Shown piece by piece: positions 18,863 through 34,939 of a stretch of DNA of 34,939 nucleotides (its first letter is position 1; the number at the start of each line of letters is the position of its first letter). The notes below the pieces were generated by a model. The model made no database searches and was not told where the DNA came from. It saw nothing but the letters and a program-made list of their open reading frames with translations. The DNA is from a virus. Taxonomy: Duplodnaviria; Caudoviricetes. The stretch spans positions 1-34,939 of IMG/VR virus record IMGVR_UViG_3300007511_000065; one strand, given 5' to 3'. Made by a program: the position numbers and the translations under genes.

Positions 18863-18937
18863 AGACTATATGAGCGCAGACCACGGTCATACTTGACTAA
18901 GCCTGATTTGGTCACAGGCATATAAAGGAGAAACGCA

Positions 18938-19072
18938 ATGGATAATCTTATTGCATGGGTAGTGTTGGCAGCCATTTTTGGTGCGTACGGCATGTGTGTT
19001 GTAACTGGACTTATTTCAAAAGAGACATTAGATGAAGCCAATGGTGTGGAAAAAACGATACTACGTCGTTGA
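18938..19072 (+). CDS. Small membrane protein (44 aa)
   Basis: Below the track cut-off. RBS AAGGAG; MDNLIAWVVLAAIFGAYGMCVVTGLISKETLDEANGVEKTILRR, one hydrophobic helix. Confidence 0.75.
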   Translation: MDNLIAWVVLAAIFGAYGMCVVTGLISKETLDEANGVEKTILRR

Positions 19073-19074
19073 TA

Positions 19075-19167
19075 ATGATGAGCGATTTCATAATACGCTC
19101 ATTAGTGATTACAGCGGTTGCTTTCAACACTGTAGTCTGGACTTGGTTAATTGAAAGCTATTGTTAA
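19075..19167 (+). CDS. Small hydrophobic peptide (30 aa)
   Basis: MMSDFIIRSLVITAVAFNTVVWTWLIESYC fills the gap between two genes; no clear RBS. Confidence 0.45.
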   Translation: MMSDFIIRSLVITAVAFNTVVWTWLIESYC

Positions 19168-19179
19168 TAGGAGAAACAA

Positions 19180-19377
19180 ATGAGAGGACGCAAGATCACT
19201 CAAGAACAGAAAGAGCAAATGATTGAATTAGCTCTTATAGATAAGACACCACGTGAGATAGTTGCGGCTGTAGGCTTGGCATACTCAACTGTGTGTACTT
19301 TTTTGAATAAGCATAAAACATCAATTGAGTTACTTCGCTCTAAGCAAGTAAAACGTTGGTGGCAATTCTGGAGATAA
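19180..19377 (+). CDS. Small HTH DNA-binding protein with KRWWQFWR tail
   Basis: RBS AGGAG; TPREIVAAVGLAYSTV is a helix-turn-helix pattern. Confidence 0.75.
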   Translation: MRGRKITQEQKEQMIELALIDKTPREIVAAVGLAYSTVCTFLNKHKTSIELLRSKQVKRWWQFWR

Positions 19378-19380
19378 GTA

Positions 19381-19584
19381 ATGGCAGCAATTACAATTGA
19401 CTCAAAGGCACCTGAGGGCAACGCCTTCATGGTGCTTGGTAAAGCTAAGTCAGTAATGAACGCTTTGGGTTATGAGCGAGATATTATCGATCAGATGATG
19501 TCAGAAGCTATGGACGGTGACTATGATCACTTGTGCCAGACCGTGGAAGAGTTCACTGATGGTTTCATGGAGATAGAAAGATGA
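19381..19584 (+). CDS. Hypothetical phage protein (acidic)
   Basis: GNAF..LG ... AM.GDYDHL pattern; tight operon packing. Confidence 0.75.
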   Translation: MAAITIDSKAPEGNAFMVLGKAKSVMNALGYERDIIDQMMSEAMDGDYDHLCQTVEEFTDGFMEIER

Positions 19585-20189
19585 CTTATGAAGCATTTGC
19601 ACTATTTAAAGACTCAGATGACTCTATCAGGAAACTGGTAGGGTTCACCCAAGCAGCACAAGGTAAAGCCTTTTGCATGGATAAGGATAATTTGTTTATA
19701 TCTACTGAAGAGCTCATTGACAAACTATCACTGGCTCAGATGGTAACAATATATAACAAGTATGCAGATAAAGAAATAAAGAAGTTTAAGGACAAAACGA
19801 CAGGGGCTGAACGCCTCTGGCATGTTCTAGAAGTATCTGCACAGCCTTCTGTATATGACAAAACCTCGGACGGTGGTGATAAATCACGAATTGAGCATAT
19901 ACCAAGACGTAAGAAGTCTGACAGGCTATACGTCTATGAGAAAGTAGATGATTTCGAGAAAGCTATTGCAGGTATGCCTAAACAAGCTAAAGATCTAGCA
20001 CATATCGTAAAAGCTGAATTACGCTCTCGTTGGACAGAGCCAGAGTTAAAGCAGGTGATACACGCTGCAGCACGCTCTGGTGCACTTAAGACGAAGCAAG
20101 ATCCTTGGCGCATATTTCAGTATTACAGAAGCCATCTTTTGAATGCTGGTATTCTACGTTTAACAACAAGATCATTGAGGGATATATAA
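19581..20189 (+). CDS. Early protein, paralogue family member 2 (shared domain at C-terminus)
   Basis: ATGA coupling; MPKQ...LKTKQDPWRIFQYYRSHL. Confidence 0.85.
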   Translation: MTYEAFALFKDSDDSIRKLVGFTQAAQGKAFCMDKDNLFISTEELIDKLSLAQMVTIYNKYADKEIKKFKDKTTGAERLWHVLEVSAQPSVYDKTSDGGDKSRIEHIPRRKKSDRLYVYEKVDDFEKAIAGMPKQAKDLAHIVKAELRSRWTEPELKQVIHAAARSGALKTKQDPWRIFQYYRSHLLNAGILRLTTRSLRDI

Positions 20190-20530
20190 TGTGGTTATAT
20201 TTTGATGATGCGTTTGTCAGTGTTGTAACACACCGAGAAGATGCTAATGTCGTCTTGGTGCGTTCACGCTGGAAAGCACATATTAATAAGCTGTTTCCTA
20301 AAGCAGTAGTTAAGTATTTGCCTAAGGCAGATTACCCATACAGAGCAGAAATTCTTAAAAAGGATTTCTCAGCTATGTTAGCCAGGAAAACAGAGGAAAT
20401 GCTGTATACAAACTTCAAGTATGCGCTTAAAGAAAAGTCTCCGGATCTCTACGAAGCAGCTTTACTGGTTTATGAAGATACCTTGTGGGGTAGAGAGATC
20501 CACGGGTGGTTGGGTAACCCTAACGTATAG
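20189..20530 (+). CDS. Hypothetical phage protein
   Basis: Start moved to ATG 20189 (TAATG overlap, GAGG RBS); MWLYFDDAFVSVV...LVRSR...DYPYRA...YTNFK. Confidence 0.8.
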   Translation: MWLYFDDAFVSVVTHREDANVVLVRSRWKAHINKLFPKAVVKYLPKADYPYRAEILKKDFSAMLARKTEEMLYTNFKYALKEKSPDLYEAALLVYEDTLWGREIHGWLGNPNV

Positions 20531-20544
20531 GTTACTTTATCGTT

Positions 20545-20578
20545 GAGCCCCTATGGACATCCTAGGGGCTCTCTTTTT
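20545..20578 (+). terminator. Terminator where the early and replication operons converge
   Basis: GAGCCCCTA-9 nt-TAGGGGCTC followed by TCTTTTT. Confidence 0.8.
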
Positions 20579-20952
20579 CACCTTTTTCTTATGATCCTTA
20601 AGAATTCTTGCCAATCATATGGCTTCTCAAACAAAACTCTAGGAACTGTTACCATACCATCCATTATCAAGTCATTGCTCTGATAAGGATCGTACAGTTT
20701 AATATCATCTTTGTGTCTGATGACAATCCAAACAGTACCTCCAGCATCTGCTCGTCTCATTAGCCAGGCAGCTTGATCTGCTCTTAAGTGGACTTTGTTA
20801 CCAGTGACAACTTTTAGTTCTAACCAGAACTCATCTCCACCGCAGCAACCATTTACATCAGGAACTCCTTGACTTGTTGCTGTTTCAATACGTTGCCAAT
20901 GAACCTCAGTTAACGCTTTCCTTATGCTGTTCCAGAAGCCGTTCTCTTTCAT
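20578..20952 (-). CDS. VRR-NUC / Holliday-junction-resolvase-like PD-(D/E)xK nuclease
   Basis: E..FW, RIE....GVPDV.....FWLELK and Q..W motifs; start probably ATG 20952. Confidence 0.85.
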   Translation of the reverse strand: MKENGFWNSIRKALTEVHWQRIETATSQGVPDVNGCCGGDEFWLELKVVTGNKVHLRADQAAWLMRRADAGGTVWIVIRHKDDIKLYDPYQSNDLIMDGMVTVPRVLFEKPYDWQEFLRIIRKR

Positions 20953-21112
20953 GTGTCTCACCCATTAAATATCGTGTTCCTTGCATTATAAGGTGTAAAC
21001 GCTCTCTAGCTTCGGGAAGATTACCTTCGGTTTCCAATAGTCTAAACACTAGCAAAATATCTGTATAGATAGCCTCTAGTTTCAATTGACATTCCTTGTT
21101 ATCATGTATCAT
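20906..21112 (-). CDS. Hypothetical protein
   Basis: ATGA-coupled to the polymerase stop; overlaps the nuclease gene start. Confidence 0.55.
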   Translation of the reverse strand: MIHDNKECQLKLEAIYTDILLVFRLLETEGNLPEARERLHLIMQGTRYLMGETHERERLLEQHKESVN

Positions 21113-22953
21113 TTTACATTCCCCCAGTTAGGTCCTATCTCTGCATCACAGAGAATAGGTATAGTTATTTCAGGCATACATTCCTCCATGATCTTCTTTA
21201 TCTCAGCAGCTTCTTTTAGACCCTCTATTGATAAATCTACTTCATCGTGTACTGTCAATTGTGGGGTATAACCAGCATCGTCTAATAAGACAATAGCTTT
21301 CTTCATCATATCAGCACTAGATCCTTGTATAAGAGCATTCAGTGCTTTATATGTGAAAGCGCGGCGTATCAGCGGACCATATTCTTCTAATGCCTCCTTT
21401 CTTGGTAATGGCTTATCATAACCACTATACTTCGTAGGTTCCCATAGATCAAACCTTCTCTTTCTGCCGAGGATAGTTTTTAAATATCCACGACGTGAAA
21501 CTGTGTTAGTGCAATAATCTTGCAGTCCTTTAACAAAAGGAACTTTCTCATGATATTGATGAAAGATTCTTTTAGACTCTTCAGGTGTCATACCTAATTG
21601 CTCAGTCATTCTTCTTGTGCCCATACCATAAGTCATTCCCAGGTTCAATGTCTTTGCAGTGGTTCGGTTAACGTTCGCCATCTCAGCAATCATGGTATGA
21701 TAATCTGTAGACGGGTCCTCTATAAATTGTTTTGCTGCATCTAAGGCACCTGGGAACTTTAGCAAGCTTGCGTAATGTATTGTAACACGGGGTTCTTGCT
21801 GGCTATAGTCGAATTTCCCCCATAAAGATCCTTCATCTGGAATAAATAAAGATCTTATTTGTGGTCCTATGCCATCACCACGTGCAGGTACTTGTTGTAA
21901 GTTAGGATTTGCAGAACTAAATCTACCAGAAACTGTTCCACCATCATCTCTTCGTAACTGATGGAATTGCGTGAATATTCTACCATTCTTAGAATGATCT
22001 AGAATCATGTTTTGTAGAAAAGTTCCGCGTGCTTTATTTAGTTTTCTTGTTTCTAGAATAGTAGAAGCAATCTCATGAGGGTCGCTAGCTAAAAATTGTT
22101 GGGTAAATGAGGGATTACCCTTATCGGTGGTATTATAGGGTAAACCTAAGGTCCTATAGGCCTTTTCGATACTTTTACTAGACCATATATCAATTGGATT
22201 ACCCGCTATGCGAGTCATTCGCTTAGATAATTCCTGTTCTTTAATACCCCAAGCATCATATAGTTCTTCTGTTTTATCTACATCAACGGCTACACCGCGT
22301 ATTCTCATTTTAAATAATACTGATTGCAGCTTTGACTCTAACTGAAAAAGATCCCACAAGCCTTCTTTTTTAAGCTTTTCGCGTTGTATAGCAAAGATTT
22401 TCATAGGTAAGACAGCATCTTGCTCTGCGTAAGGTCCTACATATTTACTAGGTAATTGCCACAAGCCAGCTTTAACATCTTTAATACCATAAGCATCCGC
22501 GGCTATTTTAAGCAGTTCTTCGTCTTTACTGTCTCCAAGATATTCTTCAGCAAGAGCCTGGAGGGCGAAACTTCTTTTATTTTCATCAAGTAAAGGCTCG
22601 GCTATTTGTATATCCCATAAAGGTCCACTGACGTGTATATCTTCAGTCCATAACCATTCTAGATCATATAATAAGTTTGCCCCGCATTTAGGGATATTCG
22701 TAGATAAAACTTCTTGCAGCCAGGAGACAATAACTTTCTTGTCCATATTTCCTGACTTATGACCTATAGGGAAATAGCCTACAAAACCTGTGTCTGTGGC
22801 TATGGAGACACCAGCTAAGTGTCCATCATGTCGAACACCTCCTGGTCCTAGTTTCTTTAGATTTGGATCGTTAGTTTCAGTATCTAACGATATGATTGAT
22901 GCATTAGATAAGTTCGGCAGCTCCGAAGGTGGTCTCCAGATACTCTCTGTCAT
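21109..22953 (-). CDS. polA: Family A DNA polymerase with 3'-5' exonuclease domain
   Basis: Exo SLDTET, N..YDL and YAEQDA; SGRFSS.NPNLQQVP; motif A DYSQQEPR, motif B RTTAKTLNLGMTYG, motif C VHDE. Start moved to ATG 22953 after GGAG. Confidence 0.95.
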   Translation of the reverse strand: MTESIWRPPSELPNLSNASIISLDTETNDPNLKKLGPGGVRHDGHLAGVSIATDTGFVGYFPIGHKSGNMDKKVIVSWLQEVLSTNIPKCGANLLYDLEWLWTEDIHVSGPLWDIQIAEPLLDENKRSFALQALAEEYLGDSKDEELLKIAADAYGIKDVKAGLWQLPSKYVGPYAEQDAVLPMKIFAIQREKLKKEGLWDLFQLESKLQSVLFKMRIRGVAVDVDKTEELYDAWGIKEQELSKRMTRIAGNPIDIWSSKSIEKAYRTLGLPYNTTDKGNPSFTQQFLASDPHEIASTILETRKLNKARGTFLQNMILDHSKNGRIFTQFHQLRRDDGGTVSGRFSSANPNLQQVPARGDGIGPQIRSLFIPDEGSLWGKFDYSQQEPRVTIHYASLLKFPGALDAAKQFIEDPSTDYHTMIAEMANVNRTTAKTLNLGMTYGMGTRRMTEQLGMTPEESKRIFHQYHEKVPFVKGLQDYCTNTVSRRGYLKTILGRKRRFDLWEPTKYSGYDKPLPRKEALEEYGPLIRRAFTYKALNALIQGSSADMMKKAIVLLDDAGYTPQLTVHDEVDLSIEGLKEAAEIKKIMEECMPEITIPILCDAEIGPNWGNVK

Positions 22954-23374
22954 ATTCGTTTCTCCAGTATCGTCCTGCTTTCTTCCATAATTCTTGTCCT
23001 GATGAAGGATAGTCTTCAAGAAAAATGATGCGTGTACAGGAAGTATTCAACAGTAGTTTTGTGCATGTAATACAAGGTGCTGTTGTGCAATAGCACGTCT
23101 TAATTTCGTAGACGTCTCTGCACTGTAATAAAGCATTCTGTTCTGCATGTATTGCTTCACATTCATTTAAAAAACTGCCCGAAGGCTTTTCAGCCCCCGG
23201 ACAGGGTTCTTCTATGCAATGACTCATACCAGCAGCTCCGCCATTATAACCGGTAGCAAGAACATGGTGACGCCCGCTGACAAGGACACAACCAACTTGT
23301 CTTCTTGCACAAGTACCGCGTTTAGCTACTAGTTTAGCCATTTCAAGGAAGTAGGTATCGCGATCAATCCTCAC
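22904..23374 (-). CDS. dCMP deaminase family protein
   Basis: C.RRQVG, TGYNG, HAEQNA and PC..C zinc-deaminase motifs. Confidence 0.93.
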   Translation of the reverse strand: MRIDRDTYFLEMAKLVAKRGTCARRQVGCVLVSGRHHVLATGYNGGAAGMSHCIEEPCPGAEKPSGSFLNECEAIHAEQNALLQCRDVYEIKTCYCTTAPCITCTKLLLNTSCTRIIFLEDYPSSGQELWKKAGRYWRNEYDREYLETTFGAAELI

Positions 23375-24167
23375 GAACGAAAACCTCCGTCATGAAGTTA
23401 GTAGGACATTCAATAATCCTACCATGAGCAAGACCGCGCAATTGCTCAACTAACTGACATTGTGATGTAAAATCATATGGATTAAATGGTTCGTATTCCC
23501 ATGTTCTTATTTCTGAATAGAGAACATCACCGGCTTTTTCCCAATTACGTTGATACAAATGCTGAGAACCTGCTGTTAGATATAAGTTACCTAACGTCAA
23601 ATCAGTCAAACCTCTGTTTCGCAACATTAGCATTATGTAACCAGTAAGCATAGTAAAGTTAAATACGTCATATGGCCAACCAAGCCAAGCATCACTAGAT
23701 CTCATTGTATCGTGACAGTTAATTACACCATCACGAATAGTCCATTGAATAGCAACGGTACAAGGTATGTCTTTACTAGGCCGCGGGTTAGGTCTCCATA
23801 TAGTCATTACCGCTTGTCTTGTATCGTTATCCTTTAAGAGCATATCACATACGTAATTCAATTGGTCTACTACTCGAGGGCCATATGCACCATTAAACCG
23901 CATACCATCATCACTGAATTGCTCTATCACTTTACTGTACGGAGCAATAGTTGCTACTCTGTTATCACCAGTGATGATCCATCTAGCTTCTGCTGGCATA
24001 AATTTATAGCCTAGCTTTCTCTCGCAGACAGTAACAATAGGATATTTCATATCAACAATAGAAGTATATGCAAGCTCTTCTCTTACCAGCATACCCCTTG
24101 GGTTACAGGTGGGTGCATCAAGCATTTTATTCAATAAGGCTATCCAAGCTTCATTTGCTGTTGCCAT
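23364..24167 (-). CDS. Thymidylate synthase homologue, probable dCMP hydroxymethylase/methylase
   Basis: YGPR, DTRQA, catalytic PC(136)T, RSSDAWLGWPYD(167) and SQHLY; Asp at the position of E. coli ThyA Asn177. Confidence 0.88.
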   Translation of the reverse strand: MATANEAWIALLNKMLDAPTCNPRGMLVREELAYTSIVDMKYPIVTVCERKLGYKFMPAEARWIITGDNRVATIAPYSKVIEQFSDDGMRFNGAYGPRVVDQLNYVCDMLLKDNDTRQAVMTIWRPNPRPSKDIPCTVAIQWTIRDGVINCHDTMRSSDAWLGWPYDVFNFTMLTGYIMLMLRNRGLTDLTLGNLYLTAGSQHLYQRNWEKAGDVLYSEIRTWEYEPFNPYDFTSQCQLVEQLRGLAHGRIIECPTNFMTEVFVRED

Positions 24168-24231
24168 GTTTTACCTCCTCATAATATAGGTATAACAAAA
24201 AGGAAATCCAGATGATACCAAAAACAATCAT
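24151..24231 (-). CDS. Possible 26-aa hydrophobic peptide
   Basis: MIVFGIIWISFLLYLYYEEVKHGNSK, ATGA-coupled to the kinase stop. Confidence 0.35.
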   Translation of the reverse strand: MIVFGIIWISFLLYLYYEEVKHGNSK

Positions 24232-24836
24232 TGCTGTAACCATCTTAGAGCTCCTTGGATGTTTCTAGCATCCATTGCGAATTGTTCAACTTGACCACCA
24301 TGATCTTCAATACAATAACGTAGACCATCTACTCTGTTTTGGAAACCTCCGCCACGGGTAATTCGAGCAGCAAGGCTATCACCTTTACAAGATTTATTGC
24401 CATACCACAGATCTATATAACGCTTGCAAACAGCTTCCATATTGTCATACATTTCATCTCTTGTTTCGCGCATTTCTTTATGCCGAGCAACACCCGCCTT
24501 AACTGTCTTTGGCATTGCGATGATATATAAAGCACTAGCCTGTTGAGCTTTAATGTCCATAATTTGTTCATTAAAAGTAGGATCTGACCCATCTCTATAA
24601 ACAGCTGCATAAATATTTTCACTCATCCAGAGTCTGTCAATGACAACCAAACGCGTTTTAGATGCTTCAATAGCGTCATGAAGAATACCAAGCTGATAAC
24701 TATACATATCCAAATCATCATCATAGGTAAGATGAATATACTCACTACCAGGGGATATCTGACATATCTTGTTTGCCAAGGTGGTTTTACCTGTCGCATC
24801 TGGTCCATCAATAATAATCAATCCTTTATGCTTCAT
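24228..24836 (-). CDS. P-loop nucleotide monophosphate kinase (thymidylate-kinase-like)
   Basis: IIIDGPDATGKTT Walker A and VIDR...SE.IY motif. Confidence 0.85.
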   Translation of the reverse strand: MKHKGLIIIDGPDATGKTTLANKICQISPGSEYIHLTYDDDLDMYSYQLGILHDAIEASKTRLVVIDRLWMSENIYAAVYRDGSDPTFNEQIMDIKAQQASALYIIAMPKTVKAGVARHKEMRETRDEMYDNMEAVCKRYIDLWYGNKSCKGDSLAARITRGGGFQNRVDGLRYCIEDHGGQVEQFAMDARNIQGALRWLQQ

Positions 24837-25246
24837 CGATAATCCCTCTCTTCTGCCATAAAGGCTTCCATAACAATACCTTCAATATCAGGAGATTTCC
24901 AGTCATCTGGTTTTACTACATCAAGAAGTGTACCTCGTTTAGAGTCATCAGCATTATTGGCGCGCACTTTACTCATGTTTGCTCGCTGAACTTCATCCCA
25001 ACCTTCTTGCCAAGGGAAACCCATACCGTAAGCTGTTCCCATAGCAACATAAACAAGATCGATTAATGCATCAAAGACTTCAGCATAATCCGCTTTTTCC
25101 AAGCCAGCTTCTAATTCAGCTAATTCTTCTTTAAGAAAGTTTACCCTAAATTCTTGGTAATGTTTAGATCCAAGGTCTGGTTTACCTATCTGCTTTAAAC
25201 CAAATTTTTCATGAAAAGCAATAATGTCTTTATACATATCAGCCAC
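24833..25246 (-). CDS. MazG-like all-alpha (d)NTP pyrophosphohydrolase
   Basis: FHEKFG, EELAE, DALIDLVYV..G, V..ANMSK and KP..W..P. Start is GTG 25246 (GGAGG RBS) or ATG 25237, not 25384. Confidence 0.88.
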   Translation of the reverse strand: MADMYKDIIAFHEKFGLKQIGKPDLGSKHYQEFRVNFLKEELAELEAGLEKADYAEVFDALIDLVYVAMGTAYGMGFPWQEGWDEVQRANMSKVRANNADDSKRGTLLDVVKPDDWKSPDIEGIVMEAFMAEERDYR

Positions 25247-26063
25247 GACAATCCTCCCAATGATCAGAACTAGAATAAGGTGTTTCAATACAAGACCATG
25301 GTGGGAAAATATCTGGCTTGTCCATACTTTTATGTGTAACTCTCCAAATAACATTTCGTGAATGTTCAGGAAATAATGGAGCAAACATAACGGCTAAAAA
25401 GTTCACATCATAATATTCTCTTAAAGCATCAAAAGCACCGTCAAGTTCCCATTCATATAACTTGTTTTTATAATCGGTAATAGAAGCAAAAGTTCCGTAA
25501 TGAGCCTCAATAGTAAAGCCGTGATCTTCTAACATACGACCAAAGGCTTCGTAGGTCATCTCATTGACGTGGTTTGCTGCTGCTTTACCATTAAAGCAAG
25601 GGGTAGAAATAAAAGCTACACCGTCATTAGTCAAATGTTCTTTAATAGTTTTAAGCATGCGATGAACGTGCTCAGGCTCAATATGTTCAACAACTTCAAA
25701 ACATGTAATTATATTTCGATCGTTGGGCAAAGCTAGTCCTGTAACATCACCACTAATTAATTCAATTGGAAACTTACCGGTGTGGAACATTTCAGGTACT
25801 TCCAATTTGTTTACGTCAACTCCAATATAGTCTTTTGCTATCATTCGAGATGAGTACATTGTTTTAGCTAATGGAACTTCTTTACCGCAGCCAATATCTA
25901 AAATCTTGGCATTCTTATAGCGTCCTTTAGCATTCAAATATTTGATTACATGGGTCCATCTAAGTACATGTGCAATATAATCTCTGTGAATAAACCCACG
26001 TTTTTCGGCTGTGTCTAATGACAAGTGGGTGTTGTCAATAGCCTTTCCTCTAGCATTCGCCAT
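25239..26063 (-). CDS. Class I SAM-dependent methyltransferase (small-molecule type)
   Basis: ILDIGCG, YIGVD, CFEVVEH, G...ISTP and H..E motifs; no DNA-MTase DPPY/NPPY/PC motif seen; RBS AGGAG. Confidence 0.88.
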   Translation of the reverse strand: MANARGKAIDNTHLSLDTAEKRGFIHRDYIAHVLRWTHVIKYLNAKGRYKNAKILDIGCGKEVPLAKTMYSSRMIAKDYIGVDVNKLEVPEMFHTGKFPIELISGDVTGLALPNDRNIITCFEVVEHIEPEHVHRMLKTIKEHLTNDGVAFISTPCFNGKAAANHVNEMTYEAFGRMLEDHGFTIEAHYGTFASITDYKNKLYEWELDGAFDALREYYDVNFLAVMFAPLFPEHSRNVIWRVTHKSMDKPDIFPPWSCIETPYSSSDHWEDCRG

Positions 26064-26082
26064 CGTTTCTCCTATAGTTAAT

Positions 26083-26100
26083 GCCCCTCCGAAGAGGGGA
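26083..26100. terminator. cUUCGg hairpin, possible partial terminator
   Basis: Minus strand CCCCTC-TTCG-GAGGGG with a weak U-tract; T-rich tail on the plus strand. Confidence 0.55.
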
Positions 26101-26107
26101 CTTTGTT

Positions 26108-26368
26108 TTAATCGTCAGCAATTTCTCTGCGTTCTACTTCAATACAATTATTATCCATAAGTACTCGCTGATAATAAGACAGGATCCTACTAACAGATTG
26201 CTTAGTAGTCAAGCGGCGTTCAAGAATAGCTAGCAAATCATTGCGCTCAATAGGTTCTTGCTTAGTAACCTCTTTGATAACCTCAACGATTTCCCAAGCT
26301 TGATCAGGAACATCACATTCCGCTGGACAATCTTTGTATGAATAAAACTTTAGAATTTTCTTTGCCAT
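26108..26368 (-). CDS. Small protein, paralogue family member 3
   Basis: VPDQ...LTTKQSVSRILSYYQRVL. Confidence 0.8.
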   Translation of the reverse strand: MAKKILKFYSYKDCPAECDVPDQAWEIVEVIKEVTKQEPIERNDLLAILERRLTTKQSVSRILSYYQRVLMDNNCIEVERREIADD

Positions 26369-26380
26369 ATTTTTTCCTTG

Positions 26381-27361
26381 TTAGGCGGCCTTAGCATACT
26401 CCTGAGCAAGATCAATTGCATTTCGCTTAAGAGTTGCATTACGACCAAACCATGCGTTAAACATTGCAGCATCTCGTTCACGACCTAACTTGTGATCAAC
26501 AACATAAGTGACTGCATTAGCTGCTGCCCACCAAGTGTTTTTTGTAGGTAAGTCATGACCAGGTTGCTTCCAAATAGCCTCACGCACTAATGACGCTGTT
26601 CTCTTAAACTGCTGAAAATCTACCACAACATCAGACTTAACATCTTTTATTTGTGATGGAGCTAGAAGTTCCGGTTGGAAAAGCTTGGCAATATATTCAT
26701 CGACCTTTTTATCCGTGAATTCTTTGCTCGCAAGAAATTCTGCATTATGTTTAAGTTGATCCATCTGATTACTAGCTAAACCAAGTGCATCTTCAGCTTT
26801 GGCAATAACAGAAGCGTCAAACTCCTGAATATGCGGCATTCTGAATTGTCCCTTAGAGCTTTCACCTAAGGCATATGTCAATGTGTTATTACACACGACA
26901 CGCGTAGGCGTAAACTTCATAATAAGACTTTTACCCCATTGATGTGGCTGAGATAGTAGAAGATAACCTTCAACCTCATCACCACCAGGAAGAGTAAATC
27001 CCTTATTAATTTTTGCTAATCCCCAGACATGTTGTCCTCCCTTAAGTGATCCAGCTGTATTCATTTCCATGTGACCTGCATCAGTGAACTTCTTAAAGAA
27101 TTCAAACACTTTCTCGTTTTGAAATGGAACGTAGTTAGATCCGCATACTCCAAACTGTGACTCATCAGAATCTCTCATAAGAACTCTGTAATCAAGTACT
27201 GGAATATCTGTCGTAGTTTTCAATGGACGTGCGGACACGGTCCAATCCAAACCAGCAGCTACTAGCATTTCGTGAGGGGTTAAATCGTGTTCTACCTGAA
27301 CACCAAGGCCATGCCATGGAACGTCACCCGCCCAAGCCATAGATTCGACTTCATGTGCCAT
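26381..27361 (-). CDS. DUF932 family protein
   Basis: MAH.VE.MA..G..PWHGLG, AGLDW.V, Y.P.QN, TAGSL.GG and RVVC.NTL motifs; RBS AGGAG. Confidence 0.88.
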   Translation of the reverse strand: MAHEVESMAWAGDVPWHGLGVQVEHDLTPHEMLVAAGLDWTVSARPLKTTTDIPVLDYRVLMRDSDESQFGVCGSNYVPFQNEKVFEFFKKFTDAGHMEMNTAGSLKGGQHVWGLAKINKGFTLPGGDEVEGYLLLSQPHQWGKSLIMKFTPTRVVCNNTLTYALGESSKGQFRMPHIQEFDASVIAKAEDALGLASNQMDQLKHNAEFLASKEFTDKKVDEYIAKLFQPELLAPSQIKDVKSDVVVDFQQFKRTASLVREAIWKQPGHDLPTKNTWWAAANAVTYVVDHKLGRERDAAMFNAWFGRNATLKRNAIDLAQEYAKAA

Positions 27362-27420
27362 ATCGTTTCTCCTTTCTATAAATGGTTAATTGTCATATAA
27401 GGTTTTGACCTTATGTGTAT

Positions 27421-27449
27421 ATTATATACCGACAAAATATCTAAGTAAA
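27421..27449 (-). promoter_or_regulatory. Sigma70-type promoter for the DUF932/modification/polymerase operon
   Basis: TTTACT-17 bp-TATAAT; TTGTCGG in the spacer; leader hairpin ATAAGGT/ACCTTAT. Confidence 0.8.
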
Positions 27450-27484
27450 CAGACTTTTTTACTTTTTTACGGGATAATAAAAAA

Positions 27485-28957
27485 TCATAGACTATAAAAT
27501 AAGTTTGTCATCGGTTGTATCAAATGTAAGGATTGTTTTGCTCGAGTGCATCCAACATAAAAAACTCGTGCTTCATCATCTGGATATTTGGTCATGTCAT
27601 TAAAAGATCTTGGTGCAATATCTGTTAATAGCATAACATTATCTGCTTCACCACCTTTAGCTCCGTGAATAGTAGATATTTTAATTCTTGGTTTATTTTT
27701 GAATGATTCTTTTTGTCTTAAACAAGCGATGATGTATTCACGTTCTTTAGGCCTGATCTTATCTAGACCTTTATGCCAAATAATGTTGGGCATACCAGCT
27801 GTTATTCTGGTATACATCGTGTTTTTATTTCTGTTTAGTTTAAGACGGTGAGATGTATATCTATTTATAGACTTTATCTCTTCATGAAAGCATATCCCGT
27901 TACGACGAAGCTTTTCCCAGGATTGTATTGCTTTTAATGCTGGACTGTCTAATATCCCTTTGTTTTTAGATTCATAGACATATCCATTGCGTTCACACAT
28001 TTCCTCTAGTTGCTTTAACATATAGCCATTTCTAGCTAAAAGCAACCAGGAACCTTTACTTACATCAGGTTGTTCATAGTGACTGTACCATTGAATACTA
28101 CCTGGTATGTGCTTGGGGTCCCATCGTTTGGCTCTGCGCTTAGATACACGTCCAATAATTCTGCTCGCGAAACTGTGGATCCTTTCTGGGACACGGTAAC
28201 TTGTGCCAAGGACTTGAACTGATCCATTAAGTGTTCTGAATCTATCAACGTCGGCTCCGGCCCATCGGAAAATTGCTTGGTCATCGTCTCCTGCAACATA
28301 TACTACCTCTGCTTGTTGTGATAATTTATTTATTACTTGCCATTGTACCACGGAAAGATCTTGAGCTTCATCAATAAACAATACCTGCAATTCAGGATCT
28401 ACTCCTTCCTCAACAAACTTAGTCAACATGTCTGTATAATCAATTAACCCCATTAAATCCTTATACTGGTAAAAGGCATCGGCAACTTGCCTTAGTTCAA
28501 ACCAATTAATATCTTCATCGTAAGACGTTTGCCATTGCTCTTCTAAAGATATTTGCTTAATACGTCGCATATTCTCATGAAATAAAAATCTGTCTCCTTT
28601 CTTAGAAGTCATGAGAGTACCTTCAGTTAAATCTAACTTAGATGAAAACTCAATGCCTAATCTAGTACCTAATTCTCTATAATGACTTAACTGCATAACG
28701 CTAGACTTATTAATACCTAACTGTCTATAACAGAGAGAATGAATTGTTCTAAAGAATACTAGGTCGTCATCACTCAAATCAAATTTATCAATAGCTCGTT
28801 CTTTAGCTTCATTTGCTGCCTTCTTTGTAAAAGCCAAGAAGCCTATATTCTCAGGTTTTACGCCATTGGTAATATGGTCTTCAACTAGCTTTAATAATGT
28901 TGTGGTCTTCCCTGTGCCAGGTGGTCCTACAATAATCTGAACTTTGTTGGGGTTCAT
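27485..28957 (-). CDS. UvrD/Rep-like SF1 helicase
   Basis: GPPGTGKT, FTKKAA.E, IDEAQD, GDDDQAIF.W.GA, SYR and STIHGAKG.EAD.V. Confidence 0.93.
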   Translation of the reverse strand: MNPNKVQIIVGPPGTGKTTTLLKLVEDHITNGVKPENIGFLAFTKKAANEAKERAIDKFDLSDDDLVFFRTIHSLCYRQLGINKSSVMQLSHYRELGTRLGIEFSSKLDLTEGTLMTSKKGDRFLFHENMRRIKQISLEEQWQTSYDEDINWFELRQVADAFYQYKDLMGLIDYTDMLTKFVEEGVDPELQVLFIDEAQDLSVVQWQVINKLSQQAEVVYVAGDDDQAIFRWAGADVDRFRTLNGSVQVLGTSYRVPERIHSFASRIIGRVSKRRAKRWDPKHIPGSIQWYSHYEQPDVSKGSWLLLARNGYMLKQLEEMCERNGYVYESKNKGILDSPALKAIQSWEKLRRNGICFHEEIKSINRYTSHRLKLNRNKNTMYTRITAGMPNIIWHKGLDKIRPKEREYIIACLRQKESFKNKPRIKISTIHGAKGGEADNVMLLTDIAPRSFNDMTKYPDDEARVFYVGCTRAKQSLHLIQPMTNLFYSL

Positions 28958-30459
28958 AGTATTGCATCGGAACCAAAGTCTGGTACATCAAACTCTTCTG
29001 TTTGTTGAGCAAACTCTTGTACAGACCAGGCATTAATACCTTTACCTTTCACATTAAAGAAATGATGCTCAGCTCCACGATCTTTAAGCATCGCATAGAT
29101 CTGATGAACCTTAAAATCTCTAAAATGCTGTCTATCTAAGAAAGCAAGAAGATCATTTACTCTAAAATAAGTTCGACCATTCTCCGTCCACGGCTTACCA
29201 ATAAGTAATTCTTCTTTAACTTGAGCTTGAACTCTACCAGTAGCGAAAGCTTCAAGCATTTCCCAAAACTGTCCTGCAGCAGAAGCATCTTCAGGAACTT
29301 CAACAATATTAACGTTGTCTAATAGGTGTTGTATAAGCTGTTGCCAATTATTTCTGTTAACAATAGATGGCATTGAGTTAAGCTGCTCCATACATCTACG
29401 TTGAAATCTATTCTGATTTTGTAAGTCATCTGTAGATAATTCTAAGCGTTCACCTTCAACATCAATAAACCAAATAGGTGGTCGTGTATCTAACTTTGTT
29501 AAACTGCCTAAGTTAGGTTGTCCACCTCCAGATACGCCGATACCATGCTCTCTTTGTCTACAAACCATCGCGTTACAATGTGGAGCGAGTGGAACCCTAT
29601 TACACATATACTCATAGTCTTTTCGTTTTAAACTCTTAACAACCGCTAAGACCTCTATACTCTTTAGAGGTGGGTCCATGTATTGTCTATTCAACTCTTC
29701 AACTTCTTCTTCCCATTTATCTGGAACTGCCTTACGTGCATAAACGCCAAGGTTAAATAGTCCATCATTACGCGTTCCTTCTGGAAAGCCACTTGTTGCT
29801 AAATGTTGTAAACAAGGTGGGCCATCAGGTAATTGATCACATGTCTGTGCTTTTATTTTCTTGACGGCTCTTTCTGTTTGTTTAAAACTATTAGCATACT
29901 CAATAAACTGTGCTGGTGATAAAGCATTACCATCATTATCAAGGCAATAGCGAGTAGTCTTATCACCATTAAAATATGGCATGTTTAGCCATGAGCCAAC
30001 ATCACCTCTTTCTACCAATAATTTTGTTTGCTTAGGAAATATCTCACAACCGCCAAAGCCACAACTTGCTGCCATGTCAGTTAGTTTTTCCTGCATAAGA
30101 CTCGCAGGTATAGGCTTCTTTACAAAAAGAAATAAATGCAAACCGCCACTCTTTGTTCTACATGGAACAAGAGGGTAATTCTTAGAGCGTATTTTCTTTA
30201 TTTGTTCTGGTATATCTAAATCGTAAACGTCAATATCAGCTGCACCCCAATGACACTTAGCATCATCGTCGATAGGAACTATACCAAGGCCTTTCTTACC
30301 TTGCAAATGTTCTTCCCATAAAGCATCTGTAACTGGCTCATTTAGCGTCTGAGCACGACCGGTCTTTTTCCCAGAGTGTTTTTCTCCTTTGATCTCATAC
30401 GAGCCATGCGCTCGTGCAAGACCTTTAAATAGCTCTGAGAACTCTGTTACTAAATCCAT
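28954..30459 (-). CDS. AEP-superfamily primase with PriCT-like domain
   Basis: HL.G...GI, DID.Y, RTKSGGLH, EIFPKQ, LNMPY, PPC and G.RN..LFN; Cys pattern; no fused helicase Walker A. Confidence 0.82.
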   Translation of the reverse strand: MDLVTEFSELFKGLARAHGSYEIKGEKHSGKKTGRAQTLNEPVTDALWEEHLQGKKGLGIVPIDDDAKCHWGAADIDVYDLDIPEQIKKIRSKNYPLVPCRTKSGGLHLFLFVKKPIPASLMQEKLTDMAASCGFGGCEIFPKQTKLLVERGDVGSWLNMPYFNGDKTTRYCLDNDGNALSPAQFIEYANSFKQTERAVKKIKAQTCDQLPDGPPCLQHLATSGFPEGTRNDGLFNLGVYARKAVPDKWEEEVEELNRQYMDPPLKSIEVLAVVKSLKRKDYEYMCNRVPLAPHCNAMVCRQREHGIGVSGGGQPNLGSLTKLDTRPPIWFIDVEGERLELSTDDLQNQNRFQRRCMEQLNSMPSIVNRNNWQQLIQHLLDNVNIVEVPEDASAAGQFWEMLEAFATGRVQAQVKEELLIGKPWTENGRTYFRVNDLLAFLDRQHFRDFKVHQIYAMLKDRGAEHHFFNVKGKGINAWSVQEFAQQTEEFDVPDFGSDAIL

Positions 30460-30576
30460 AAGTTCTCCTCAATAAAGGCTGCATGTACATACGAAGGCAG
30501 CCACTCCGTTCTAAATAATCTACAAGTAAGAATATAAAGAAACCTCTTGTAGAAGATGATGTACTCACCCAACGTT

Positions 30577-31350
30577 TTAGATTAGATCATCATTATTATC
30601 ATCTTCACCAGATGGTGCACTCACGTTAACTGCGCCGGAACTTACGGATTCATGGAAAGCTTTTGCTTCCATATAAACGTCAGCTTGATTAACAAGACCA
30701 GCAGACGTAATACTCCAACCAAACCAAGTACCCATGTCGTTAGACTCTGGAACAGTTGTTAGGTTATAGACTTGGCCAAACATTGGTGGGGTGATTACTT
30801 TACCATCAATGTTTTCACGACGTGAAGCAATCATACTATTCCAGCGTCTAGCTTTTTTAAGCTGCGTTGAAGACATTGTAATAACTGCTTGCATTGGTTT
30901 ACCATCTGGTCCTACAGCAATAACATAATGGTAAGCGGTCTGAACAATATTATTTCCATTTGGTAAGAAGTCTTTACCATCAATGGTTTTCATATTTGAC
31001 AGAATAGGATCATTAGGCTCATACTGATTAACAAGACCACCACCTTCTTCACGTGGTTTCCATTCAACAAACTTACGTTGATATGCTGTAGGAATAACTT
31101 GAAGACCAGTATCACCATCGAAGATTTCGTTAGATACAGTATTATGTATCATACCTTCTTCTGCACCTTTAATGTAAGCACCATCAGACTTCTTACATTG
31201 TGGTGAACCTGACTGTAATATAGACAGGAATGGAATAGCCAGATCATCTGCGCCAATTGTTTCTAAGCCAGCACCTGAGTCAAGTGCTATTGAAGTAAGC
31301 ATCTCTTTAGAGAGCTCAGTGGTTTTTTGGGTAACTAATTTATTAGTCAT
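30577..31350 (-). CDS. Putative single-stranded DNA-binding protein
   Basis: IPFL.ILQ..SP, EW.PR..GGG and M.STQLK..R.WNS motifs; acidic C-terminal tail; upstream of the primase. Confidence 0.65.
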   Translation of the reverse strand: MTNKLVTQKTTELSKEMLTSIALDSGAGLETIGADDLAIPFLSILQSGSPQCKKSDGAYIKGAEEGMIHNTVSNEIFDGDTGLQVIPTAYQRKFVEWKPREEGGGLVNQYEPNDPILSNMKTIDGKDFLPNGNNIVQTAYHYVIAVGPDGKPMQAVITMSSTQLKKARRWNSMIASRRENIDGKVITPPMFGQVYNLTTVPESNDMGTWFGWSITSAGLVNQADVYMEAKAFHESVSSGAVNVSAPSGEDDNNDDLI

Positions 31351-31365
31351 TTGTTTCTCCTTTCT

Positions 31366-31923
31366 TTACTTCTTGATAGAAGCTTTGTTTGAAATGTGGA
31401 TACTAAATGTATCCATTGGTATAGGCTCACCGGCCTCAATCTGCTCTTTAACAAACGCACGAAGTGTTTGCCAATGAACGGAATCTTTTTCGCTAAATGG
31501 AATATTCTCTTCAGACATGAGCTCTTTAACATGGTCAGCAGTATCTTCTTCACCGCGACCAAAATTCATTTTGATCTCACTTTTAATAAGATCGCCAAAG
31601 CCATTGTCTCGTAACCAGGAATAAGCTACATCAGCATTCTTTTTAGAAATAGCCGCATAATATTCTGTTGCTACAGAAATGGCAGAGCCATCTTCAAGAA
31701 CAACTTTCTCTAAGCCAAGCTCACTCATAGCTTGGGGAAGAGCTTCATATTGTAGTCGATCTAATTCTTTCTTTTTATCTTTAAGCAACTGCTCAATATC
31801 TTCAATTTCTCTCACTGTAGCAGAAAGAGTTGCTGCGATATAAGAGACTAAACCTAAGTTCATCTCAGCAGCTGATTGATTTTTGGGTGCAGCGTCAGCT
31901 GCCATCATATCAGATAGATCCAT
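31366..31923 (-). CDS. Replication-module protein of unknown function
   Basis: Coiled coil, LP..M.E.G, WLR.NG.GDLIK and VH..TL.AFVKE; RBS AGGAG. Confidence 0.75.
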   Translation of the reverse strand: MDLSDMMAADAAPKNQSAAEMNLGLVSYIAATLSATVREIEDIEQLLKDKKKELDRLQYEALPQAMSELGLEKVVLEDGSAISVATEYYAAISKKNADVAYSWLRDNGFGDLIKSEIKMNFGRGEEDTADHVKELMSEENIPFSEKDSVHWQTLRAFVKEQIEAGEPIPMDTFSIHISNKASIKK

Positions 31924-32251
31924 TGTTTCTCCTTATGTCAATAGTCGTAGGATAATAGTGCTTCAACTCTTTATCCCATTTTAATAGATTAACGTATCCC
32001 CCAGTTTTACTAGAAGCAATCATAGCCGCAGCGGCAATTGAACCAGGGTCTCCCATTAATAATAGATAATCCTTCACTGTAAACAAGTCTAAGCCTTCTT
32101 GTAAGACTTTTATAACTTCATCATTATTGAAGGTAAACAAGTTACCATGAGGGAGTAGTACGCTGATGTTACCATATTCTGTTGCACTAAGAATGTTTCG
32201 CCCGCGTACTTCCTGCGTAACATAGACTGTAGGAACAGTTTTTTCTGTCAT
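31910..32251 (-). CDS. Hypothetical phage protein
   Basis: VYV.QE...NI..A..YG, DYLLL.GDP and LKWD motifs; RBS AGGAG. Confidence 0.8.
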   Translation of the reverse strand: MTEKTVPTVYVTQEVRGRNILSATEYGNISVLLPHGNLFTFNNDEVIKVLQEGLDLFTVKDYLLLMGDPGSIAAAAMIASSKTGGYVNLLKWDKELKHYYPTTIDIRRNNGSI

Positions 32252-32283
32252 AATTATTCTCCTTTCTGTGTAGTAAAGTGTAT

Positions 32284-32312
32284 ATTATAATTCGGTTTTT
32301 ATCCAATGAAAA
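32284..32312 (-). promoter_or_regulatory. Sigma70-type promoter for the replication operon
   Basis: TTTTCA-17 bp-TATAAT; AACCGA ends two bases before the -10 box. Confidence 0.75.
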
Positions 32313-32336
32313 CAGGGAAATTAAATTTAGTCGTTA

Positions 32337-32482
32337 ATTGTTATTACTATATAGAGAAATTTTTTTATTTTTCTAAACCCCATGGAAAAATGCCAATATG
32401 TCCAATAATCCAATAATACCCTTATATAGTAAGGACTTAGGGGTTATTGGGTGTTTATCGGTTATTGGCAACTGCCAATAAT
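32337..32482. repeat. 146-bp imperfect direct repeat, copy 2 (origin-like)
   Basis: Same length and orientation as 17748-17893; the last 25 bp are identical. Confidence 0.9.
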
Positions 32483-32493
32483 TTATTTCCAAG

Positions 32494-32522
32494 TTTACAT
32501 ATTTAATCCGCCGGCGTATAAT
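32494..32522 (+). promoter_or_regulatory. Sigma70-type promoter for the SNF2 helicase
   Basis: TTTACA-17 bp-TATAAT. Confidence 0.8.
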
Positions 32523-32557
32523 ATATAATAACAATTACCCACCAGAAAGGAGAATAT

Positions 32558-33997
32558 ATGAATTTCAAAACAACCCCCTATGCACATCAATTAGAAGCCT
32601 TCAACAGAAGCTGCGACCAACCAGCCTTTGCTTACTTCATGGAAATGGGTACAGGTAAATCAAAAGTTCTTATTGATAATATTGCATATTTATATTATAA
32701 ATCAGAAATAAATGCTGCCATCATCTTTGCTCCTAAGGGAGCATATAGGAACTGGACAAATATCGAACTAGGTAAGCACACGCCTGATGATATTACTATG
32801 ACCTTTGCTTACTGGACACCTAATCCTAAGAAAAACGAAAAAGATGCGTTGCTCTCTGTCCTTCAACAAGGTAGTGATACACTAAAGGTCCTTGTAATGA
32901 ACACAGAAAGTCTGTCTACGACTAAAGGAACGAAGTTTGCTCAACAATTTTTAATGCGCCACCACACATTAATGGCGATAGATGAGTCAACGGGGATCAA
33001 AAATTATAAAGCAAAACGAACAAAAGCTGCTCTTAATATTGGTAGACGAGCAAAGTATCGACGTATTTTAACAGGTGAACCTGTTACCAAGAGTCCGTTA
33101 GATCTGTATAGTCAAATGGCTTTCCTCAATCCTAACATTATTGGTCATACCTCATTCTATTCTTTTCGAAATAGATATGCAATCTTAAAACAACGCTATA
33201 CAAATGCAAGGACATTCACAGAAGTAACAGGTTATAAAAATATTGAGGAATTACAAGCACGTATACAAATAGCCTCTTATCGCGTACGTAAAGAAACATG
33301 CTTAGATCTACCTCCAAAGATATATACTACTAGAGAAGTTGAGTTAACTGCTGAGCAAAAGAAAATCTACAAAGATCTTGTTAAACGCAGTCGAGCTGAA
33401 TTAACGGAAAAAGGAAAGTTTGGTGTAGTGTCTACGCCTATGATTATCACAAAGATATTACGACTACATCAGGTGGTTTGTGGCACATTAAAAGATGATA
33501 ACGGGGAGTTACATAGTATAAATAGTAATAGAGTTAAGTCGCTTATGGAACTTCTGGAGGAAGTAGATGGAAACGTTATTATTTGGTGTAACTATATTGC
33601 TGACATTCACAACATATCTAATGCTTTATCTAAGGAATACGGGCCAGAGTCTGTGGTCCCTTATTACGGAGCAGTTAGTTCTGATGATAGAGTTGAAGCT
33701 GTCGATAGGTTTCAATCAGGAGAAGCACAATTCTTCGTAGGTCAATCACGCACAGGAGGTTTTGGTCTAACCCTTACTAAGGCCACAACTGTTATATACT
33801 TCTCTAATAATTACGATTTGGAAGTTAGACTACAATCAGAAGATCGTGCACATAGAATTGGCCAAGATGTTTCTGTTACATATGTCGATATGATTTCACC
33901 AGGAACAATTGATGAGAAGATTATCCAAGCATTAAAAGCTAAGCGCAATCTATCAACAAAAGTTATGGGAGATGATTGGAGAGACTGGATAAAATAA
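32558..33997 (+). CDS. SNF2-family (SF2) helicase/translocase
   Basis: PY.HQ, MEMGTGKS, IDEST.IKN, LTG.P, GG.GLTLT.A and QSEDRAHRIGQ. Confidence 0.93.
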   Translation: MNFKTTPYAHQLEAFNRSCDQPAFAYFMEMGTGKSKVLIDNIAYLYYKSEINAAIIFAPKGAYRNWTNIELGKHTPDDITMTFAYWTPNPKKNEKDALLSVLQQGSDTLKVLVMNTESLSTTKGTKFAQQFLMRHHTLMAIDESTGIKNYKAKRTKAALNIGRRAKYRRILTGEPVTKSPLDLYSQMAFLNPNIIGHTSFYSFRNRYAILKQRYTNARTFTEVTGYKNIEELQARIQIASYRVRKETCLDLPPKIYTTREVELTAEQKKIYKDLVKRSRAELTEKGKFGVVSTPMIITKILRLHQVVCGTLKDDNGELHSINSNRVKSLMELLEEVDGNVIIWCNYIADIHNISNALSKEYGPESVVPYYGAVSSDDRVEAVDRFQSGEAQFFVGQSRTGGFGLTLTKATTVIYFSNNYDLEVRLQSEDRAHRIGQDVSVTYVDMISPGTIDEKIIQALKAKRNLSTKVMGDDWRDWIK

Positions 33998-34025
33998 AGC
34001 CTCGGAGTGACTAGTTCCGAGGCTT
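33990..34025 (-). terminator. Rho-independent terminator (U-tract on minus strand)
   Basis: AAGCCTCGGA-9 nt-TCCGAGGCTT followed on the minus strand by TATTTT. Confidence 0.8.
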
Positions 34026-34085
34026 AAGATCCATCTTCGAGGAGAAACGCTCTTGAGGAGAGGACATTAGTAAGAAGAGTGGATA
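33990..34085 (-). ncRNA. Candidate ~95-nt small RNA with anti-Shine-Dalgarno tracts
   Basis: Bounded by a near-consensus promoter and a terminator; no RBS-led ORF; contains CUCUCCUCAA and GCGUUUCUCCU. Confidence 0.55.
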
Positions 34086-34090
34086 ATTGT

Positions 34091-34119
34091 ATTATACCAA
34101 ACGATATTATTAATGTAAA
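34091..34119 (-). promoter_or_regulatory. Sigma70-type promoter of the candidate sRNA
   Basis: TTTACA-17 bp-TATAAT with extended TGn. Confidence 0.8.
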
Positions 34120-34128
34120 CAGTATTGG

Positions 34129-34287
34129 CTAATTAACCCGATTAGTACAGTCACATGGTGGACACACTACCTGCTGTGGCATAGACATCATCTGTCTTGG
34201 CATATCCATCATCATTTGAAAGAAAGCATAACTTGCTGTTGCTGTAATCATTCCAATGCCAAATACTATGGCGCATCTTTTATTCAT
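34129..34287 (-). CDS. Small Met/Cys-rich secreted or membrane peptide (52 aa)
   Basis: MNKRCAIVFGIGMITATASYAFFQMMMDMPRQMMSMPQQVVCPPCDCTNRVN; ATGA-coupled; signal-peptide-like N-terminus. Confidence 0.65.
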   Translation of the reverse strand: MNKRCAIVFGIGMITATASYAFFQMMMDMPRQMMSMPQQVVCPPCDCTNRVN

Positions 34288-34712
34288 TTTCCCTTCGCTA
34301 ATTGCGCTCCAAAGTAGAACTCAACAATCATTGTCGCCCACTTAAAGATCTCTTCATACTTAACCATAGCTTCTACTGTTATATAGGTTGTTGTCTCTGG
34401 TTCTTCTATCATCCCATACAACCAGCTAGTGCCTTTCTCTACTACTGGGATAGCAACTTCAATACCAAATAGCCCTGCTAGTGGATATAAAGCTACCAAG
34501 CCAAGAATAGAAAACACCAACACTCTACGGTTAAGGGCAGCCATAGGGCTTTCCTTGTTTGCCTGTGCTCTAGCTTTTTCTAAAGCCTCATTATTAACCT
34601 GATTACCTTGTATAGCCAGCTTAAACGCTTCATGGTTTTGCTGTGATTTAATTGCAATCAGCTTAGCAATAAAGCCTAAAATAATAGGTATAACATTAGT
34701 CAGTAATGCCAT
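34284..34712 (-). CDS. Holin-like membrane protein
   Basis: About three hydrophobic segments and a terminal FYFG motif as in 3TM holin-like proteins; start ATG 34712 (TGATG) or GTG 34715. Confidence 0.6.
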   Translation of the reverse strand: MALLTNVIPIILGFIAKLIAIKSQQNHEAFKLAIQGNQVNNEALEKARAQANKESPMAALNRRVLVFSILGLVALYPLAGLFGIEVAIPVVEKGTSWLYGMIEEPETTTYITVEAMVKYEEIFKWATMIVEFYFGAQLAKGK

Positions 34713-34819
34713 CACTTAAACCACCTCTTAATGATATTCCAATAGTGTTTAAAACAGTTAGCAGGACATACCTCAACATACACCCCTCTAGCATTACGAT
34801 ACATCTTAGTCTTTTTCAT
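34712..34819 (-). CDS. Small basic hypothetical protein (35 aa)
   Basis: RBS GGGGAG; MKKTKMYRNARGVYVEVCPANCFKHYWNIIKRWFK; stop overlaps the next start. Confidence 0.55.
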   Translation of the reverse strand: MKKTKMYRNARGVYVEVCPANCFKHYWNIIKRWFK

Positions 34820-34939
34820 ATTCTCCCCCTAGCAACAGTACAGATACGGAAAGAACAAAGTACAGTCTGCTATCGGCACTAGATAATCAATCATCCAATC
34901 GTCTTTAATGTTTCAATAAAACCTATTTCAGTCATTAAG

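Follow-up and report, generated by a model that had tools for sequence, protein, structure and literature searches.

Why would a phage keep, between two convergent transcription units, a promoter-led stretch that encodes no evident protein and whose minus strand is complementary to the ribosome-binding sites (RBSs) of its own genes? The question arises in the window analyzed here, that is, the whole stretch of 34,939 nucleotides, a 34.9-kb fragment of an uncultured marine podovirus without terminal repeats. Sequencing runs from the same studies are seawater metagenomes. The capsid protein shares 56-62% identity with those of HTVC010P-type pelagiphages, and the helicase and primase share 39-53% identity with those of psg01 and DSL-LC04; blastn searches against cultured phages returned nothing meaningful.

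An initial annotation of the sequence had proposed a small RNA acting against the RBSs of multiple early and replication genes. The analyses reported below support a candidate multi-target anti-RBS RNA directed at the phage's own early and replication genes, on the grounds of a predicted accessible seed, top-ranked predicted sites and conservation in a diverged relative, L129.

Organization of the locus and predicted transcript

The anti-RBS unit sits between the convergent helicase gene and the end of a leftward, presumably late, operon, with the following features.

32558-33997, plus strand: helicase gene, convergent with the leftward operon
33990..34025, minus strand: intrinsic-terminator-like hairpin (10 bp, 9-nt loop, U-rich tail) abutting the helicase stop codon
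33990..34084, minus strand: predicted RNA of ~95 nt, its start placed from the -10 spacing and its end from the terminator
34029..34038, minus strand: 3' arm of the enclosing stem (predicted fold)
34040..34050, minus strand: main anti-RBS tract GCGUUUCUCCU, with a 9-nt seed predicted to be accessible and UUUCUCCU conserved in L129
34053..34061, minus strand: second tract UCUCCUCAA, partly within a weak inner hairpin
34074..34084, minus strand: 5' arm of the enclosing stem (predicted fold)
34091..34099, minus strand: extended -10, TG-n-TATAAT, of which TATAAT and the next bases are conserved in L129
34114..34119, minus strand: -35 hexamer TTTACA, absent from L129
34715-34284 and 34287-34129, minus strand: last genes of the leftward operon

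The promoter (TTTACA-17-TATAAT with an extended -10 TG, 34119-34091, minus strand) had been described as near-consensus and matches the consensus at 11 of 12 positions, ranking best among 61 promoter-like sites in 17000-34939. Only four of these sites score 11/12, and the other three (18209, 18834 and 32494) have the same hexamers and lie ahead of early or helicase genes. The RNA that we infer to be transcribed from it is predicted to fold (-28 kcal/mol, z -4.4) into a 10-bp stem closing a large loop that contains the accessible GUUUCUCCU seed, followed by the U-tailed terminator. When four of the six sequencing runs were compared with 17000-34939, no contig covered the unit, a result that counts neither for nor against expression. 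Most of the significance of the predicted fold comes from the terminator, as the 5' domain alone yields a z of -1.5 in both the window and L129, like shuffles. The terminator hairpin itself was recovered as annotated, although a terminator scan, with its loop limit of 8 nt, did not list a hairpin with a 9-nt loop; it would also terminate the late operon. The plus strand of the unit folds with equal stability (-32 kcal/mol), and a bidirectional terminator was rejected because the U-tail is present on the minus strand only.

The claim that the ~95 nt hold no RBS-led open reading frame (ORF) proved accurate. The minus strand of the unit contains one 18-codon ORF without a Shine-Dalgarno (SD) sequence; on the plus strand, the motif is followed by a TTG ORF of 5 codons, its TTG lying 8 nt past AGGAG. 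Neither is retained in L129. A coding role for the unit was rejected, given an ORF that is SD-less, 18 codons long and not kept in L129.

Several other features of the window were recorded alongside. An imperfect direct repeat of ~150 nt (17746-17890 and 32344-32500) flanks the early/replication block; it is AT-rich, carries recurring CCAATAA/TTATTGG motifs, is partly kept in L129, and its copies may be origins of replication or sites for a regulator. The stretch from the terminase small subunit to the first early promoter includes a GC-rich island (17900-18130) that contains repeats and palindromes, in a genome that is otherwise 39% GC. Internal segments resembling inserted domains are present in two large late proteins of 1087 and 642 aa (684-5875); by eye, these segments look kinase-like and ADP-ribosyltransferase-like.

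Complementarity to the ribosome-binding sites of early and replication genes

The minus-strand sequence GCGTTTCTCCT at 34050-34040 is, as first noticed, an exact 11-nt complement of 18926-18936. The seed complement GGAGAAAC occurs eight times in the 34.9-kb window, once in the unit and seven times just before start codons, including all six starts that had been named for it (19180, 22953, 26063, 27361, 31350 and 31923). A second sequence, TCTCCTCAA at 34061-34053, had been matched to the primase RBS; its exact 9-nt complementarity to 30472-30464 stands, and the primase RBS was downgraded as a main target because the net energy is only -5.2 kcal/mol. The RBSs concerned are the following.

18926..18936, plus strand: RBS of a 44-aa hydrophobic ORF (start 18938) without a PHROG match, 11-nt complement
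19169..19177, plus strand: RBS of a 65-aa ORF (start 19180), predicted target
22957..22965, minus strand: RBS of DNA polymerase (phrog_17, start 22953), predicted target
26064..26073, minus strand: RBS of a methyltransferase-like gene (start 26063), predicted target
27364..27373, minus strand: RBS of a phrog_1221 gene (start 27361), predicted target with the best net energy, -14.0 kcal/mol
30464..30472, minus strand: primase RBS, weaker candidate, complementary to the second tract
31353..31361, minus strand: RBS of a phrog_2402 gene (start 31350), predicted target
31925..31933, minus strand: RBS of a phrog_2378 gene (start 31923), predicted target

Two of the seven predicted targets have no PHROG match, and the others are the polymerase, the methyltransferase-like gene and the phrog_1221, phrog_2402 and phrog_2378 genes. 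Two tiny hydrophobic ORFs, 18938-19072 (44 aa) and about 19078-19170 (~30 aa), lie behind the 18834 promoter and a structured leader. The 18938-19072 ORF has the longest match to the RNA.

Target scoring was performed over 40 curated start regions, with early and late classes assigned from gene identity and position. The motif GGAGAAAC is found at 7 of 22 early/replication start regions and at 0 of 18 late ones (Fisher p=0.009), in agreement with the original description of the targets as early or replication genes. Valid scores were obtained for 39 of the 40 regions, the MazG-like gene being entered as zero in the Mann-Whitney test (p=0.024); its upstream region does not contain GGAGAAAC, so that the 7/22 count is unaffected. 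Across the phage's start regions, the seven GGAGAAAC sites rank first in predicted accessibility-corrected energy (-14.0 to -11.3 kcal/mol), followed by two late genes (-9.4 and -8.7 kcal/mol); the primase and helicase start regions rank low.

Burial of the tracts in structure had been raised as a possible objection. The predicted cost of opening the 9-nt seed is ~1.1 kcal/mol at 37 C and 1.5 kcal/mol at 15 C, a value of ~1.1 kcal/mol holding for 5' ends from 34082 to 34200, and rises to 2.1 kcal/mol in a 311-nt read-through context. The full 11-nt tract, whose first two bases are predicted to be paired, would cost 3.8 kcal/mol to open, and the second tract 2.4 kcal/mol. Predicted hybrid energies over the SD at three tested sites range from -13.9 to -19.9 kcal/mol, the comparison duplex with a 16S-type tail having -8.7 kcal/mol.

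The seed is short, at only 8-9 nt. Perfect complements of 9 nt or more to the 38-nt loop are present in 8 of the 40 start regions. The same count of 8 is reached by 29 of 64,186 other 38-nt segments of the genome, all of them at a single site antisense to the primase gene; among 20,000 dinucleotide shuffles, 16 yield 8 or more such regions. Since a match at ~1e-3 would occasionally turn up by chance in a very large scan, independent conservation becomes the decisive evidence.

Conservation of the unit in a diverged relative

Protein-led scans identified one intermediate relative, L129, which is the sole diverged relative found; its helicase and primase are 69% and 78% identical to those of the window, and its gene order is the same. 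Only 31 of 90 four-fold synonymous sites of the helicase are identical between the two, indicating saturation. Against this background, the stretch from the -10 through the 5' stem arm is identical at 20 of 26 positions without gaps, and the seed at 8 of 8. The L129 unit occupies the same position on the same strand, with a TATAAT, a 10-bp stem and a terminator that is unrelated in sequence. Its loop is a 19-nt pyrimidine tract, predicted to be fully open, that ends in UUUUUCUCCUU and keeps UUUCUCCU; no second anti-RBS tract is found within the L129 unit. In a near-identical strain the element is unchanged, which is little informative.

Aligned stem pairs are kept in 5 of 5 cases, one via a two-sided and one via a one-sided change. 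The two-row pair count equals that of shuffles (252/500), and slid registers pair only 20-50%. The wobble (G-U) pairs of the L129 stem form on the minus strand only. No -35 is present in the L129 unit, where the TATAAT shares bases with the stop codon of a 38-aa ORF, and an independent promoter is there doubtful; the RNA may therefore also, or only, be the 3' end of late transcripts.

Among 114 distinct helicase-downstream regions, a TATAAT followed by an anti-SD tract was detected only in L129 and the near-identical strain, and a two-sequence covariance model of the 5' domain retrieved nothing from 200 sources beyond the two sequences it was built on. Scans of viral contigs for sequence patterns gave 64, at least 119 and 12 loci; among the matches listed, the near-identical strain was the only relative, besides two distant helicase-bearing loci from the second scan that have no such unit. 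The conservation evidence comprises two lineages only. Judged by these comparisons, the unit is a real, selectively kept non-coding unit with a putatively exposed seed that matches early and replication genes of the same phage.

Other elements in L129 touch on the same motif. At 2668-2725 of L129, in a divergent intergenic region where the window has a 113-aa gene (32251), there is a second strong stem-loop; the anti-RBS tract in its minus-strand loop is longer and is complementary without mismatch over 11 nt to the RBS of the next gene (start 2564), and the stem-loop may act in cis or as a second anti-RBS element. In the L129 unit, the loop of the terminator (4455-4470) carries AGGAGA on the RNA strand, predicted to pair with the unit's own seed at -8.5 kcal/mol, and a possible self-masking pseudoknot is thereby suggested that is absent in the window. 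The helicase promoter is conserved at 2961-3003 of L129, where the start codon lies 11 nt past the -10, SD-less and near-leaderless; unlike that of L129, the window helicase has an AGGAGAA RBS. In an unrelated phage (L473, 3001-3125), a TATAAT precedes a hairpin, then an UUUUCUCCUU tract that is unpaired, and more hairpins upstream of a terminase gene, and no RBS matching that tract was found within the 6 kb examined.

An extended ribosome-binding site in phages carrying the unit

In the window, the motif GGAGAAAC lies ahead of 5 of 34 long ORFs, compared with 9 of 2125 in 262 loci of more distant relatives. The shorter AGGAGAA precedes 8/34 ORFs in the window, 2/5 in L129 and 73/2125 in the more distant relatives. 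As far as these counts go, the extended RBS is a feature of phages carrying the unit. Kinship can explain the correlation between the two, because they belong to one lineage.

The window and L129 were further compared over five orthologous start regions drawn from 6,271 of the 16,420 bases of the L129 contig. The window loop forms perfect matches of 9, 9 and 9 nt with its own three orthologous RBSs and of 6, 8 and 8 nt with those of L129; the L129 loop forms perfect matches of 7, 9 and 10 nt with its own RBSs and of 7, 9 and 9 nt with those of the window. The orthologous RBSs thus differ between the two phages in the direction of the respective seeds. In swapped duplexes, however, predicted energies favor the own RBS in only one of three orthologous genes, for the window loop and the L129 loop alike, and where the RBSs differ, the more AT-rich phage has A/U in place of G/C. 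Because the energies show no own-target preference and the changes follow this compositional direction, covariation of seed and RBS is suggestive only.

Proposed mechanism and alternative explanations

We consider it somewhat probable that the unit encodes a trans-acting anti-RBS RNA that damps early and replication translation and is produced both from its own promoter and from the 3' ends of the late operon. According to this model, the RNA would display its seed in an open loop closed by a stem, and the seed would pair with the extended RBS, (A)GGAGAAAC, of seven early and replication genes, at mRNA positions of about -13 to -1. Pairing would exclude the 30S subunit and lower translation of the target genes. 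Two sources would supply the RNA: host polymerase starting at the unit's own promoter, and late transcripts stopping at the same terminator, of which it would form the 3' end. Because late-operon transcripts end at that terminator, its dose would rise through infection, imposing a delayed brake on the polymerase and other early and replication mRNAs and shifting ribosomes from these to late mRNAs. Late timing would not follow from a constitutive sigma-70-type promoter alone. Repression by the RNA and its timing are, like its transcription, what we infer from this arrangement.

Whether there is a regulatory RNA at all is the most basic point of contention. The region could instead be the terminator or 3' UTR of the late operon, with the plus-strand AGGAGAAA representing a relic RBS, as the initial annotation had itself envisaged, or a chance motif. 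A late operon requires a terminator anyway, a plus-strand TTG does follow AGGAG in the window, one other genome site equals the match count by chance, and events at p ~1e-3 are expected when many windows are scanned. We nevertheless judge this unlikely, for the TTG ORF has just 5 codons and a relic RBS is disfavored in that the L129 plus-strand motif has no start codon behind it at a distance suiting an RBS; moreover, the full extended promoter lies inside the window's intergenic gap, and the -10, stem and seed are conserved despite saturated synonymous sites and a rewritten terminator. It is likewise improbable, in our estimation, that the motif is read by a protein, in the manner for which T4 RegB and CsrA provide models. 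The minus strand would then be a decoy for a protein binding or cleaving anti-SD sequences, or a plus-strand RNA arising by helicase read-through and carrying AGGAGAAAC would titrate a translational repressor or a GGAG-cutting nuclease that acts at early RBSs. Read-through of the helicase is possible in the absence of a plus-strand U-tail, the plus strand folds as stably, the common extended RBS motif could serve as an operator, and the second stem-loop of L129 (2668-2725) has the same motif in its loop; yet the conserved -10, the predicted start at the 5' end of the stem, the terminator tail and the G-U pairs of L129 all indicate the minus strand.

Granting a minus-strand RNA, its main targets might be host mRNAs with AGGAG(A) SD sites, for shut-off or reprogramming of the host, the match to the phage reflecting no more than a shared host-type SD. 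What is conserved, the core UUUCUCCU, is an anti-SD of generic type, swapped energies show no lineage specificity, and the best sub-threshold Rfam match is to the toxic small RNA (sRNA) family of Betaproteobacteria (E 0.097), overexpressed members of which are reported to slow growth (PMC5688073). Set against this, the seed reaches into AAAC(G), which is present at seven of the phage's own RBSs and rare in relatives (the 9/2125 above), and the mRNA of the phage's own polymerase would be struck hardest, so that a predominantly host-directed RNA seems to us a rather poor prospect. An RNA that occludes the same RBSs could also persist and silence the early genes of resident or incoming genomes, in an immunity or carrier-state role. 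Being of the host sigma-70 type, the promoter could be active with no phage protein present, the gene with the longest match is the first one downstream of an early promoter, and c4 RNA is reported to act in immunity (PMC12197685). The window, however, is a fragment without terminal repeats, and we regard such a role as very unlikely. The damping of early and replication translation by a trans-acting anti-RBS RNA thus remains our preferred reading.

A broader proposal builds on it. A private SD extension may tag early and replication mRNAs, with one anti-RBS RNA reading the tag at a dose rising with late transcripts; this would constitute a protein-free early-to-late translational switch and an instance of a widespread, undescribed class of phage RNAs. 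We put this forward tentatively, as a possibility that we lean against at present. Early-gene shut-off in small podoviruses without an obvious transcription switch is poorly known, and, if the proposal is true, an RNA reading an 'address' in the RBSs of an entire temporal class would account for it compactly and would also provide a small orthogonal RBS/anti-RBS pair for synthetic translation control.

Relation to known regulatory systems

In T4, the endoribonuclease RegB shuts down early phage mRNAs by way of a GGAG-type SD motif by which early genes are distinguished. There the reader of the motif is a nuclease made of protein, whereas in this phage the reader of the motif would be an RNA.

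The principle of an anti-RBS sRNA is already known. No Rfam family matches the window unit at gathering score. The best weak match, RF02278, covers the 3' part of the unit and scores 19.6 bits (E 0.097), below its gathering threshold of 50; RF02278 has no match in the L129 unit, and the c4 family is not among the window or L129 matches to E 10. In the predicted structure, the unit shares with RF02278 an unpaired CU-rich RBS complement ahead of a terminator. The toxic sRNAs are described as having unpaired CU-rich RBS complements and slowing growth on overexpression (PMC5688073), and the function of the double-hairpin RNAs of RF02278 is called unknown in another paper (PMC4603805). Both are described as short RNAs with CU-rich RBS complements before a terminator and many predicted RBS targets (PMC5688073, PMC4603805). 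The RF02278 RNAs are chromosomal and multi-copy in Burkholderia, with the seed mostly at the free 5' end; this unit, in contrast, is predicted to carry its seed within a large loop closed by a stem, and the seed matches sites in the genome that encodes it. It works like the RF02278 toxic sRNAs, as far as prediction goes, but is not a member of the family. The NmsR sRNAs of Neisseria meningitidis similarly leave two CU-rich tracts unpaired, and these complement RBSs in a functional set of genes (PMC5688073); NmsR serves a bacterial metabolic regulon and not a phage temporal program, and no sequence relation to the unit is shown there.

Many phage non-coding RNA candidates have no assigned function, as listed in a preprint (bioRxiv 10.1101/2023.10.13.562163). 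In the literature covered on phage sRNAs and anti-Shine-Dalgarno or early shut-off, with subscription journals sparsely represented, no phage RNA mirroring its own early RBSs was found. PreS of lambda and VpdS of VP882 are described in one review (PMC12197685) as trans-acting phage sRNAs of 50-90 nt that tune the lytic cycle; they differ in being Hfq-dependent, with host targets (PreS acting on dnaN), and are not presented there as anti-SD mirrors of their own early RBSs. The closest phage RNA in logic, by analogy, is c4 of P1/P7, described in the same review (PMC12197685) as a phage-encoded trans-acting RNA whose loops pair around the RBS of a phage mRNA and block translation. There, c4 controls one antirepressor operon for immunity (PMC12197685), whereas the single seed of the unit reported here matches the extended SD of seven scattered early and replication genes.
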